From IMG/VR virus record IMGVR_UViG_3300001518_000024: a stretch of DNA of 15,499 nucleotides; one strand, written 5' to 3'. The stretch comes from a virus. The position numbers and the translations under genes were made by a program. A model generated the notes under the pieces. It worked only from the letters and a program-made list of their open reading frames with translations. It did not search any database and had not been told where the DNA came from. Within the stretch, counting starts at the first letter, position 1. Each line of letters begins with the position of its first letter. Positions 7,275-9,978 of this stretch are shown here, in pieces.

Positions 7275-7444
7275 TGGGAATGTTTGACCCTGATGAAGAC
7301 CTCACCTATATTAAAATGGAATCTCAATTAGATAAAATTAAAAAAGTTCTAAAAGCAGATTTTTTAGACGATGATGAAAAACTCTTCTTTATTAAAAGAA
7401 TTATTTTTGAAGAAAATATGAAAGGAGATAATTACTTTGCTTAA
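7274..7444 (+). CDS. Hypothetical small protein of 56 aa.
   Basis: The ATG at 7274 is preceded by GAGGAGG (7259-7265) with an 8-nt spacer. The track start at 7247 lacks an SD. The 3' end overlaps the start of the ligase gene. Confidence 0.4.
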   Translation: MGMFDPDEDLTYIKMESQLDKIKKVLKADFLDDDEKLFFIKRIIFEENMKGDNYFA

Positions 7445-8675
7445 CCCAAAAACTAACGAAAGAGAACTTGCATATGTTGTAGTTGTTAATGATATTACTC
7501 CTATTGAAGGATATGATAGAGTAGAACTTGCTCATGTTGGTGGATGGACTATCGTTGTCGGTAAAGGTGAATTTAAAAAACTTGACCCAGCTATTTACTT
7601 TGAAATTGATTCAAAACTTCCTGAAGTAAAACCTTTTACCGATATGGAATTTCTTGCTAAAAAGAAATATCGTGTAAAGACTCAAAAGATGTGTAAGTCT
7701 ATTTCACAAGGCCTTCTTATCTCTGCAAAAACAATGGGATGGGAAATTGAAGAGCCTCAAACTGAACATGGAATCCCCTATATTGTAGATAGTGATGGTC
7801 GCGTACATATCCCTTACGATGATGAAACTCGCTTCCTTACAAAAGACCTTGGAGTAACTTATTATGTTGCAGAGGATAATGCGCGGAAGGCCCCTTCTAT
7901 AGATAAATATAAGAAAATGGCACAGCGCAACGGTAAACTCTTTGCAAAACAGCCTTTCCGCTGGCTTATGAAACGGGATTGGGGTAAGAGATTTCTTTTC
8001 ATTTTCTTCGGCAAAAAGAGAGATAAAACTGGCTGGCCCGCTTGGGTAAAGAAAACTGATGAAGAAAGAGTCCAAAATATGCCTTGGATTCTTGAAGATA
8101 AGTCTCCTTGGATTGCAACAGAAAAAATTGATGGTTCTTCAACTACATTTACTATCAAACGCGGAAAGTGGCCTCATAAAAATGAATTTTATGTTTGCTC
8201 TCGTAATGTTTGTTTTGATAAACCTGATAAAGCATGTTTTTATGATACTAATATTTATACAGAAATGGCAGAAAAATATCATATTGAACATACCTTAACT
8301 GAAATGTTGACTCTATATCCTGAAGCAGAATGGATTACTATCCAGGGCGAAACTTACGGGACAGGAGTACAAAAGAGAGATTATCATCTCAAAGGCCATG
8401 ATTTTATGGCTTTTAACCTTATTACTTCTGATAAGGGAAGGTTTAATACTCTTAAAATGCGGGAATTACTTGAAGATTATTATCATATTCCCTGTGTTCC
8501 TATTGTTGATACTAAGTTTATTCTTCCTGATACAGTAGAAGAACTTCTTGAATACGCAACAAATAAATCTCAGATTGATGGGGATATGAGAGAAGGTATT
8601 GTATTCCGTTCTGAGGATGGAAGTAAATCTTTTAAAGCTGTATCTAATGAATTTCTAATTAAGTATCATCAATAA
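7437..8675 (+). CDS. ATP-dependent RNA ligase: an N-terminal OB-like domain plus a nucleotidyltransferase domain, Rnl2/Rnl5-like.
   Basis: It is a 412-aa ORF. The TTG start at 7437 is preceded by AAAGGAG with a 9-nt spacer. Nucleotidyltransferase motif I, IATEKIDGSS (about nt 8115-8144), is close to the T4 Rnl2 motif EKIHGTN. It is adjacent to a Pnk kinase and a phosphoesterase, which is the RNA-repair context. Confidence 0.65.
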   Translation: MLNPKTNERELAYVVVVNDITPIEGYDRVELAHVGGWTIVVGKGEFKKLDPAIYFEIDSKLPEVKPFTDMEFLAKKKYRVKTQKMCKSISQGLLISAKTMGWEIEEPQTEHGIPYIVDSDGRVHIPYDDETRFLTKDLGVTYYVAEDNARKAPSIDKYKKMAQRNGKLFAKQPFRWLMKRDWGKRFLFIFFGKKRDKTGWPAWVKKTDEERVQNMPWILEDKSPWIATEKIDGSSTTFTIKRGKWPHKNEFYVCSRNVCFDKPDKACFYDTNIYTEMAEKYHIEHTLTEMLTLYPEAEWITIQGETYGTGVQKRDYHLKGHDFMAFNLITSDKGRFNTLKMRELLEDYYHIPCVPIVDTKFILPDTVEELLEYATNKSQIDGDMREGIVFRSEDGSKSFKAVSNEFLIKYHQ

Positions 8676-8683
8676 AAATAAAT

Positions 8684-8726
8684 AGTAAAAGGAACTTTGT
8701 TGTTCCTTTTACTATTTAAATTTTTA
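8684..8726 (+). terminator. Rho-independent terminator after the RNA ligase gene.
   Basis: AGTAAAAGGAAC, loop TTTGTT, then GTTCCTTTTACT form a 12-bp stem, followed by ATTTAAATTTTT. Confidence 0.6.
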
Positions 8727-8740
8727 AAAAGGATTTTTAT

Positions 8741-8935
8741 ATGGAAAGAATAAAATGGTTTTCACCAAAAGAAAAATTACCACCATATAATAAGCCTGTT
8801 CATTTAGAAATTGAATTTCCCTATGGAAGTCTTTATCATGTTTATGGATGGTTTAATGAAGAAGGATGGTACACTCTTGGTGATTTTAAAAATTATGTTG
8901 TAAAAAGATGGAGTTATTTCATTAAAAATGAATAA
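8741..8935 (+). CDS. Small phage protein of 64 aa, DUF551-like.
   Basis: ORF-track ORF. It is W/Y-rich (KWFSPKEKLPPYNKPV...GWYTLGDF...VKRWSYF), which resembles the DUF551 phage family. The assignment is from memory. Confidence 0.4.
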   Translation: MERIKWFSPKEKLPPYNKPVHLEIEFPYGSLYHVYGWFNEEGWYTLGDFKNYVVKRWSYFIKNE

Positions 8936-9431
8936 AAATTATTTATATATTATGATAGGTGTACCTGGCTCTGGGAAAAGTACGTATGCCCAATTTCTAC
9001 TTACTAATAAAGATAATACAGATTGGGTCTCAAGAGATAAAATAAGATTTGATTTACTTACAGAAAAAGATAGTTATTTTGCAAAAGAAAATCAAGTTTA
9101 TAAAAATTTTATTTCACAAATAAATACAGGGCTACGTATGGGCCATAATGTTATAGCAGATGCAACTCACCTTAATCCTAAAAGCCGTTATAAACTTTTT
9201 AATAAACTTCATATCGACCGTACTAAAACAATAGTAATAGGTATATATATGAACCTTCCTTTAGAAACGTGTCTTAAACATAATGAAAAAAGGAAGGGTA
9301 ATCGTACTTATGTATCTCCACATGAAATACATAATATGTATGTTAGACTAGAACCACCCACCTATAACGAGCCTTTTGATTATATATATGTCTTTAATGG
9401 AGAATCAATAAATCTCTTAGAAAGGAGATAA
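8928..9431 (+). CDS. Polynucleotide 5'-kinase (T4 Pnk kinase-domain-like, P-loop).
   Basis: It has a Walker A motif, IMIGVPGSGKSTYAQF, then RD, and the residue pattern IADATHLNPKSR ... KRKGNRTYVSPHEIHNMY, which parallels T4 Pnk (GCPGSGKST ... ISDTNLNPERR ... SKRG..VP..VLRSMY). The start overlaps the preceding stop. Confidence 0.7.
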   Translation: MNKNYLYIMIGVPGSGKSTYAQFLLTNKDNTDWVSRDKIRFDLLTEKDSYFAKENQVYKNFISQINTGLRMGHNVIADATHLNPKSRYKLFNKLHIDRTKTIVIGIYMNLPLETCLKHNEKRKGNRTYVSPHEIHNMYVRLEPPTYNEPFDYIYVFNGESINLLERR

Positions 9432-9432
9432 T

Positions 9433-9978
9433 ATGGCTATTTATTTTACTGCGGACCCTCATATCGGGCACGATAAGGATTTTATCTGGCGGCCGCGCGG
9501 TTTTTCTTCAGTTGAAGAACATGATACAGAAATCTTAAAAAGATGGAATAGTATTGTAACTCCAGAAGATACTGTTTATATTCTTGGCGACCTTTGTATG
9601 AGCGGAAACGAAAAAGAATGGAATCGTGTCTATAAAGTATTAAATGGAGAAAAAATTGTTATTTGGGGTAATCACGATACAAATAACAAACTTAATAAAT
9701 ATCAAATAGAATACGGTATGACATATCTTGGCTTTGCTTCAATTTATAAATATAATAAAAAGAAAATGTTTTATCTTTCTCATTACCCTACTCTTGTAGG
9801 TAATTTTGAGGAAGAGCGTTTCTTCTGGAATTTATCTGGACATACTCATAGTTCTAATAAATTTGAATTTGGACAGTATAGTATTTATAATGTAGCAATG
9901 GATGCTCATAATTGTTATCCTGTGTCTATAGAACAAATAATTAAAGATATTGATAAATATAAGGAGAAGAAAAAATGA
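9433..9978 (+). CDS. Calcineurin-like metallophosphoesterase, a likely 2',3'-cyclic / 3'-phosphate end-healing phosphatase.
   Basis: It carries the MPE signature motifs DPHIGH, GDLCMSG, GNHD and GHTH. It starts 1 nt after the kinase stop, with a TGA stop. The kinase-MPE-ligase combination mirrors bacterial Pnkp. Confidence 0.7.
   Translation: MAIYFTADPHIGHDKDFIWRPRGFSSVEEHDTEILKRWNSIVTPEDTVYILGDLCMSGNEKEWNRVYKVLNGEKIVIWGNHDTNNKLNKYQIEYGMTYLGFASIYKYNKKKMFYLSHYPTLVGNFEEERFFWNLSGHTHSSNKFEFGQYSIYNVAMDAHNCYPVSIEQIIKDIDKYKEKKK

Follow-up and report, generated by a model that had tools for sequence, protein, structure and literature searches.

Results

A split RNA repair-type gene cassette

The IMG/VR virus record IMGVR_UViG_3300001518_000024 is a stretch of 15,499 nucleotides (nt) of DNA from an uncultivated phage, in the following called the window, whose plus strand encodes an RNA ligase of the Rnl5 family (positions 7437-8675; 412 amino acids (aa), TTG start), a stand-alone P-loop kinase of the polynucleotide kinase (Pnk) type (8928-9431; 167 aa) and a single-domain metallophosphoesterase (MPE; 9433-9978; 181 aa). 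An original prediction, made from the sequence alone, had described these as three adjacent genes that together probably repair tRNAs cleaved by anticodon nucleases. All motifs that it quoted are present when read directly from the sequence, and the three open reading frames (ORFs) confirm that ligase, kinase and phosphoesterase are separate polypeptides. Searches with hidden Markov models likewise returned the expected domains, namely RNA_ligase (PF09414, 7.7e-21), AAA_33 (7.2e-18) and Metallophos (2.3e-07), all well outside what chance would give. The domain assignments of all three proteins are therefore upheld, and neither of the misassignments that the prediction had itself considered, a DNA ligase or capping enzyme and an unrelated nucleotide kinase, was borne out. 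The three genes also exist as described but are not strictly contiguous. Ligase and kinase are parted by an ORF of 64 aa (8741-8935, plus strand) that runs 8 nt into the kinase gene. This ORF had been overlooked, as had a terminator-like hairpin with a 17-bp stem (8679-8718, plus strand) that lies just 3′ of the ligase stop and is followed by a T-rich run. Only 1 nt separates the kinase stop from the MPE start.

For comparison, at least 113 related stretches were found in IMG/VR, several of them on contigs of 130-240 kb, and 80 of these relatives (designated by L numbers) were compared. When 50,697 phage records were searched with the cassette by megablast, none matched, and thus no close cultured relative emerged. 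The hairpin after the ligase stop recurs in eight relatives inspected (L002, L003, L005, L006, L008, L009, L013 and L026), where its sequence is unrelated to that of the window, except in L006, the closest of the eight to the window. In L008, L013 and L026 the hairpin is followed by a -10-like element, TGTTATAAT. An Rfam search of the window for structured RNAs returned no matches.

The ligase is an Rnl5-type enzyme

The ligase consists of an N-terminal OB domain (aa 12-95; Pfam PF21189, PHA02142 OB domain, 1.3e-17) and the PF09414 nucleotidyltransferase domain (aa 224-402 of 412), and lacks a C-terminal appendage, as is characteristic of the Rnl5 architecture. Its KIDG motif corresponds to K230-G233 (nt 8124-8135), with K230 as the lysine nucleophile. 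The TTG start codon is supported by the relatives, whose proteins begin MLN... with an ATG at the same position. The best solved relative is NgrRnl from Naegleria gruberi (PDB 5cot, E 3e-31), to which both domains align, and in PHROGs the protein matches phrog_968 at 7e-63. The top NCBIfam model is TIGR02306, RNA_lig_DRB0094, built around the Deinococcus DRB0094 ligase (E 1.4e-30). These matches agree with the original prediction of an RNA ligase, and since the domain and family searches gave no match to DNA ligases or capping enzymes, those identities find no support. The suggestion of an Rnl2-type enzyme did not hold, as the best match is to Rnl5. Nor is the protein a loop-sealing enzyme of the Rnl1/Rnl4 type; it has no match to RNA_lig_T4_1.

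The active site agrees with this assignment. The NgrRnl residues R4, D53, R149, K170, D172, E227, E312 and K326 correspond to R9, D58, R211, K230, D232, E305, E386 and K400 of the phage ligase, and these eight are invariant in an alignment (A2) of the clade with two distant phage homologs. Together with K121, whose equivalent falls in an unaligned insertion, they make up the nine ATP- or metal-contacting residues of NgrRnl whose functions have been described (PMC7261155), so that eight of nine are conserved. Judged from its sequence, the protein is a member of the ATP-dependent Rnl5 RNA ligase family.

The insertion, specific to the clade, spans aa ~96-199 (window 7722-8033) and takes the place of ~40 NgrRnl residues; according to the alignment, neither NgrRnl nor the homologs of phages Kremar and Cece have it. 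It holds a highly conserved basic segment, DKYKKMAQRxGKLFxKQPxRWLMKRxWGKK. No domain can be assigned to it, because confidence in the AlphaFold2 model is too low (predicted local distance difference test score of 72, with part of the insertion in the low-confidence range). The ligase reaches only 106.4 bits against the TIGR02306 equivalog cut-off of 151.15, and is a divergent Rnl5 member, probably as a result of this insertion. Rnl5 homologs in phages were already remarked on by Shuman's group (PMC4408790). Every homolog from an isolated phage falls below 30% identity to the window protein, and the family abounds in metagenomes, where it counts no fewer than 7,997 clusters.

The kinase belongs to the Pnk clade

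The kinase carries a P-loop, GVPGSGKST (aa 11-19, nt 8958-8984), that conforms to the Walker A consensus GxxGxGK[ST], and an SRDKIR motif (nt 9030-9047) with Asp37 and Arg40 as candidate catalytic residues. These two align with D38, the general base, and R41 of the Clostridium thermocellum kinase CthPnk; the counterparts in T4 Pnk are D35 and R38. Residues G11, G16, K17, S35, R36, D37, R40, D78, R87 and R122 are invariant in the family alignment, and the set thus includes the catalytic Asp (D37), the DxxR Arg (R40) and a lid arginine (R122). The roles given here to the catalytic Asp and Arg follow PMC3902929.

Beyond the AAA_33 domain, the kinase matches the polynucleotide kinase family phrog_505 (2.8e-21). 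As a single sequence it finds Pnkp1 (3.6e-8), CthPnk (2e-5) and T4 Pnk (5e-3) in the PDB. The family profile is far more sensitive and returns CthPnk (5.8e-16), PSTK (2.8e-14), Pnkp1 (2.2e-13), T4 Pnk (5.2e-13) and mammalian PNKP (7e-7), whereas gluconate, adenylate and uridine kinases are matched over the P-loop alone, at a marginal 7e-4 to 9e-3. The profile thus favours the Pnk-type kinase originally predicted over deoxynucleoside monophosphate kinases, and by sequence comparison the protein sits in the Pnk clade of 5′-OH polynucleotide kinases. Its phosphate acceptor cannot be fixed in this way, because PSTK, which phosphorylates tRNA-bound serine, scores similarly. The model for bacterial Pnkp, TIGR04075, covers the kinase segment only (37.7 bits against a cut-off of 750), and Pfam detects no HAD domain within the 167 aa. 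The nearest cultured relatives are kinase-HD-phosphohydrolase fusions of Bacillus phages, which adjoin Rnl1-type RNA ligases. In the PHROG profiles this type of kinase is fused to a lambda-phosphatase-like MPE in phrog_246 and to an RNA ligase in phrog_8238. A search for Rosetta-stone fusions among the best 120 homologs each of the kinase and the MPE found stand-alone proteins throughout, of ~165 and ~180 aa, respectively; evidence for fusion exists at the level of PHROG profiles only and concerns other MPE or HD types.

The phosphoesterase is of the aq_1665 type

In the MPE, the binuclear-metal and catalytic motifs DPHIGH (aa 8-13), GDLCMSG (52-58), GNHD (79-82) and GHTH (136-139) are complete, and all are invariant in the family alignment. 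The protein matches phrog_547 at 1.1e-45 and has the features of the aq_1665/phrog_547 family: a single domain of ~180 aa with the series DxH, GD, GNH(D/E), H and GHxH, and PDB entry 1xm7 as the closest structure. The original prediction had likened it to the phosphatase of bacterial Pnkp. This is correct as far as the metallophosphoesterase superfamily is concerned, but the protein is not of the lambda-phosphatase/CthPnkp type, an identity that both sequence and structure comparison rule out. After aq_1665, its structural neighbours include the DNA nucleases PdeM and Mre11/SbcD, and NCBIfam records a weak match to ligase-associated PdeM (4.4e-5). Among the PDB matches the aq_1665 family has no characterised member, its entry being annotated as a 'protein of unknown function'. 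A note in the record of Pseudomonas phage PAK_P4 labels the conserved domain of the MPE family AQ1575 (cd07390), and a literature search on that name returned only unrelated papers. From the gene context, we propose that the MPE is an end-healing enzyme with 2′,3′-cyclic-phosphodiesterase or 3′-phosphatase activity.

The gene neighbourhood is conserved in a large clade of phages

Of the 80 relatives, 61 have both kinase and MPE at a distance of at most 8 kb from the ligase. In 50 of these 61 loci, the two are separated by at most 150 nt (median 39 nt), and in 41 the kinase follows the ligase within 1 kb. The linkage persists even though the identity of kinase and MPE drops to 35-40%, and synteny kept over so many relatives supports a functional link of the three genes.

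The relatives also point to a further component. Directly upstream of the kinase, or overlapping it, 39 loci encode a 99-aa CxxC...CxxC zinc ribbon (for example L013:9342-9641) with a match (1.6e-11) to phrog_1257, 'ribosome associated inhibitor A; zinc finger domain'. It accompanies kinase and MPE even where the unit stands 7 kb from the ligase, and ligase, zinc ribbon, kinase and MPE follow one another contiguously in 21 loci. The window and its subclade (L001-L012 and L034) lack the gene; between ligase and kinase, the window, L001, L006 and L012 have the unrelated 64-aa ORF in its place. The zinc ribbon is probably a fourth component of the module that was lost by the subclade of the window. 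In 26 relatives, a second, larger MPE of ~280 aa (phrog_1649; Metallophos 1.8e-14) is encoded upstream of the ligase, for example at L013:6543-7385, so that many of them have two different MPEs flanking the ligase. The protein encoded at L013:6543-7385 has no sequence match in the PDB, and the window has no copy of this gene.

Related combinations occur in cultured phages. In Pseudomonas phage PAK_P4, a stretch of 3 kb accommodates genes for an aq_1665-type MPE, a ligase resembling Rnl1 and a kinase with an AAA_33 domain. In Microbacterium phage Cece, an Rnl5 homolog stands within a tRNA array beside an RtcB ligase, and 11 of the 80 relatives have tRNA arrays no more than 8 kb away from the ligase.

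A proposed RNA end-healing and sealing pathway

On the basis of these results, we lean, with caution, towards reading the locus as a phage RNA end-healing and sealing pathway that is split over separate polypeptides. In this pathway, the Pnk-type kinase would transfer phosphate from a nucleoside triphosphate onto 5′-OH RNA ends, and the aq_1665-type MPE would open 2′,3′-cyclic phosphates and/or strip 3′-phosphates to yield 3′-OH ends. The Rnl5-type ligase would then join the 3′-OH and 5′-PO4 ends via a lysyl(K230)-AMP intermediate. Suitable substrates would be structured host or phage RNAs, such as tRNA or rRNA, that have been cut by metal-independent ribonucleases, for example defence nucleases or toxins. 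The sequences establish the families of ligase and kinase, intact active sites in all three proteins and a gene linkage conserved over a large clade of uncultivated phages, whereas the substrate of the MPE, an RNA rather than a DNA target and any part in counter-defence are inferred. The narrower scenario of the original prediction, in which the cassette counters anticodon nucleases of the PrrC/RloC type, is possible but doubtful. According to Iyer et al. 2021 (PMC7824862), phage ATP-dependent RNA ligases work with Pnk kinases and with phosphoesterases that are usually of the HAD type; in a few jumbo phages, the phosphatase that partners such kinases and ligases seems to be calcineurin-like or an HD protein instead. 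Membership of the cassette in a defence system was considered as well, but PADLOC gave only marginal matches of ~1e-3, which were dismissed.

Several observations weigh against an RNA repair pathway. Characterised Rnl5 members act as sealers of nicked duplexes, and their activity on single-stranded RNA is feeble (PMC4408790), and the physiological substrates of these enzymes have been called 'uncharted' (PMC5397189). Because of this preference, the natural substrate may be a base-paired break, or the insertion may alter specificity. Ligase and kinase-MPE unit are probably transcribed separately, since the terminator-like hairpin and, in some relatives, the promoter-like element intervene. A scan for tRNA genes found none in the window. 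The surroundings are of the replication type, with a topoisomerase II in the window and RNase H in relatives. About 19 of the 80 relatives lack a complete kinase-MPE pair in the DNA retrieved, and five of them (L047, L057, L058, L076 and L077) have no such pair despite at least 6 kb on each side of the ligase. Furthermore, the MPE family is far more widespread than those of its presumed partners: it occurs in 1,527 phage records, the ligase family in 332 and that of the kinase in 49. The MPE of Staphylococcus phage ESa1 has no annotated RNA-repair neighbour, and the only repair-type neighbours of that in Pseudomonas phage M1 are a DNA ligase and endonucleases.

Alternatively, the genes could serve genome maintenance instead of repair of the translation apparatus. 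In such a replication or repair module, kinase and MPE would heal 5′-OH/3′-phosphate nicks in DNA or in RNA-primed or RNA-patched DNA, and the ligase would join an RNA 3′-OH to a DNA 5′-phosphate. The substrate range of Rnl5 enzymes allows this, as they require RNA only at the 3′-OH side and accept DNA at the 5′-PO4 side and as the template strand. Moreover, loss of DraRnl renders Deinococcus sensitive to ionising radiation and delays reassembly of its genome, and the polynucleotide kinase DR_B0098 is encoded on the megaplasmid that also carries DraRnl (PMC5397189). The topoisomerase II gene (12739-14649) and the gyrA-like start (15127) of the window, the RNase H of the relatives, a DNA ligase domain encoded downstream in L087, and the resemblance of the MPE to PdeM and Mre11/SbcD point in the same direction. 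Yet the closest cultured relatives of the kinase pair with Rnl1-type ligases, which are of the tRNA-repair type, and 11 relatives as well as phage Cece have tRNA arrays next to the ligase. In addition, phages of this group appear to have a separate DNA ligase for DNA nicks, as in L087. We regard a genome-maintenance function as unlikely.

That the three genes are mere neighbours and do not form one pathway strikes us as improbable. The ligase would then act alone, and the MPE, with or without the kinase, might degrade cyclic-nucleotide defence signals, serve as a nuclease or act on nucleotides or phosphoproteins. The breadth of the MPE family in phage records and its lack of a known activity would fit, as would two of the three MPE neighbourhoods inspected, which show no annotated kinase or RNA ligase beside the MPE. 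Pseudomonas phage Kremar likewise has the ligase alone, as do several relatives for which several kb were retrieved on each side, and in the window the hairpin parts it from the downstream genes. Chance proximity accords poorly with a kinase-MPE pair that is adjacent in 50 of 61 loci and stop/start coupled despite an identity of 35-40%, or with a kinase that follows the ligase within 1 kb in 41 of them. The three types of activity cluster in the unrelated phage PAK_P4 as well, and a Pnk-clade kinase has no obvious role in the degradation of signals.

Comparison with known repair systems

The proposed RNA end-healing pathway resembles T4 Pnkp and Rnl1, which counter PrrC, in that a phage-encoded kinase, a 3′-end phosphoesterase and an ATP-dependent ligase are distributed over more than one polypeptide, and the kinases belong to a common P-loop clade. 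T4, however, has its phosphatase joined to the kinase as a HAD/DxDxT domain, and its ligase is an Rnl1 with a C-domain for tRNA specificity; in the window, the phosphatase is a separate binuclear MPE and the ligase an Rnl5 of the nick-sealing family with an N-terminal OB domain. Furthermore, no trigger or target of the PrrC type is known for the window phage.

With the bacterial systems Pnkp/Hen1 of C. thermocellum and Pnkp1-Rnl-Hen1 of Capnocytophaga, the cassette has the chemistry of kinase, metallophosphoesterase and ligase in common. Bacterial Pnkp kinase domains are the closest solved relatives of the window kinase, and in Pnkp1-Rnl-Hen1 the ligase likewise resides on its own polypeptide. 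Bacterial Pnkp, by contrast, combines kinase, lambda-phosphatase-like MPE and an Rnl4 ligase in one polypeptide, whereas the window has three ORFs and an Rnl5 ligase. No methyltransferase domain that could represent Hen1 was detected in the window ORFs scanned. DraRnl and NgrRnl match the window ligase in their OB-plus-nucleotidyltransferase architecture without C-terminal appendage and in the conserved active-site residues, but they differ from it by the insertion at aa 96-199. Whereas the window ligase is linked to a kinase-MPE pair, DraRnl is encoded in an operon with a DEDDh-like protein (PMC5397189).

Among phages, loci of the Bacillus phage Sophrita/Tsamsa type also combine a Pnk-like kinase, a phosphohydrolase and an RNA ligase, but there the ligase is of the Rnl1 type, and in Sophrita the phosphohydrolase, an HD domain, forms part of the kinase polypeptide instead of being a separate MPE. 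PAK_P4 has its MPE family in common with the window (30% identity, E 4e-14), but differs in its Rnl1-like ligase and in its kinase, which matches the window kinase only around the P-loop. We found no biochemical characterisation of the Sophrita/Tsamsa-like or PAK_P4 loci in the literature searched. The cassette would thus work like T4 Pnkp and Rnl1, Pnkp/Hen1 and Pnkp1-Rnl-Hen1 but is a member of none of them, because its phosphatase is neither HAD nor lambda-phosphatase-like, its ligase is Rnl5, Hen1 is missing and the polypeptides are separate.

Phages are known to answer host defences that cleave RNA by heal-and-seal repair, and the known phage examples use Rnl1, Rnl2 or RtcB ligases with phosphatases of the HAD or lambda-phosphatase type. 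The concept is therefore not new, as the work of Iyer et al. 2021 (PMC7824862) and the earlier remark on Rnl5 homologs in phages (PMC4408790) make clear. In the literature searched, which did not extend to Burroughs & Aravind 2016 (NAR 44:8525), we found no description of the combination of Rnl5 ligase, Pnk kinase and aq_1665 MPE or of its conservation throughout a clade. By pairing an Rnl5 ligase with an MPE family of no known activity, the locus offers a testable handle on both families. It is conceivable, if a long shot, that Rnl5 ligase, zinc ribbon, Pnk kinase and aq_1665-type MPE form a conserved, previously undescribed four-gene pathway of RNA repair, shared by a large clade of TAG-recoded phages of the gut/rumen type with ~130-240 kb, and reduced to three genes in the window. 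If so, the module would give Rnl5 ligases their first physiological context and phrog_547 its first function, as a 2′,3′-cyclic phosphodiesterase/3′-phosphatase. Should the inference from gene context hold, there would also be more enzymes to seek when phage resistance to PrrC, RloC, HEPN, Cas13, PARIS and retron effectors is predicted.

Amber recoding and neighbouring genes

The window phage reads the amber codon TAG as sense in late genes. When TAG is translated, a 506-codon endolysin with 10 in-frame TAGs appears at 10785-12302 (plus strand), with GH25 (2.5e-25), CHAP (1.6e-8) and GW domains, and a 978-codon ORF with 22 in-frame TAGs fills the ORF-poor left end at 376-3309 (minus strand); the latter has no Pfam match. 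A third recoding site lies at 2-397 (minus strand). Nine plus-strand genes checked contain no in-frame TAG, namely those for the ligase, kinase, MPE, the 64-, 149- and 185-aa ORFs, the vault-like protein described below, the holin and topoisomerase II. This use of TAG agrees with what has been published on the recoding of late genes in gut phages; the paper on the TAG-recoded phage phAss-1 mentions none of the cassette genes. Two relatives encode tRNAs with the anticodon CTA, labelled 'tRNA-Pyl' by ARAGORN, in tRNA arrays near the ligase (L047:1079-1165 and L075:2721-2795), which from their sequence are candidate amber-suppressor tRNAs. It is a more speculative idea still that the module shields the tRNA pool, including an amber-suppressor tRNA needed to decode late genes, from host defences that cleave tRNA.

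The two small ORFs that flank the kinase-MPE pair differ in their distribution. The 64-aa ORF has no match in Pfam, PHROGs, NCBIfam or PADLOC and, among the 80 relatives, is confined to the closest ones (L001, L006 and L012); it is a variable filler gene and no conserved member of the module. The 149-aa ORF downstream of the MPE (10078-10527, plus strand) likewise has no family match in these four collections. As determined by tblastn, it is located 3′ of the MPE in the L001-L012 subclade with the exception of L011, and is also found in the divergent relatives L020, L028, L029, L034, L040, L042, L045, L070 and L078, which gives ~20 relatives overall. In L039 it has stayed with the kinase, not with the MPE. 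Possibly it is an accessory component of the module.

The holin gene (10582-10800; Phage_r1t_holin 1e-15; phrog_443) is directly followed by that of the GH25-CHAP-GW endolysin, and the two stand amid a block of early or replication-type genes. The GW and CHAP cell-wall domains and a GC content of ~30% suggest a Gram-positive (Bacillota) host. Hosts of phages with an MPE of this family include Staphylococcus, Listeria and Enterococcus, and T5-like phages carry it as well.

Upstream of the ligase, the window encodes an 831-aa protein homologous to eukaryotic major vault protein (MVP) at 4054-6549 (plus strand), with MVP_shoulder (2.7e-20), Vault_3 and Band_7/SPFH domains. It aligns with rat MVP over aa 327-779 (E 2.6e-16). 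One paper on bacterial MVP homologs contains no description of a phage-encoded MVP. The gene is kept upstream of the ligase in many relatives and belongs to no PHROG family. In L086, a contig of 108 kb, the large-subunit gene of topoisomerase II is split (8588-12395) into a gyrB/Toprim part and a following gyrB C-terminus, with one GIY-YIG homing-endonuclease gene between the two pieces and a second just upstream.

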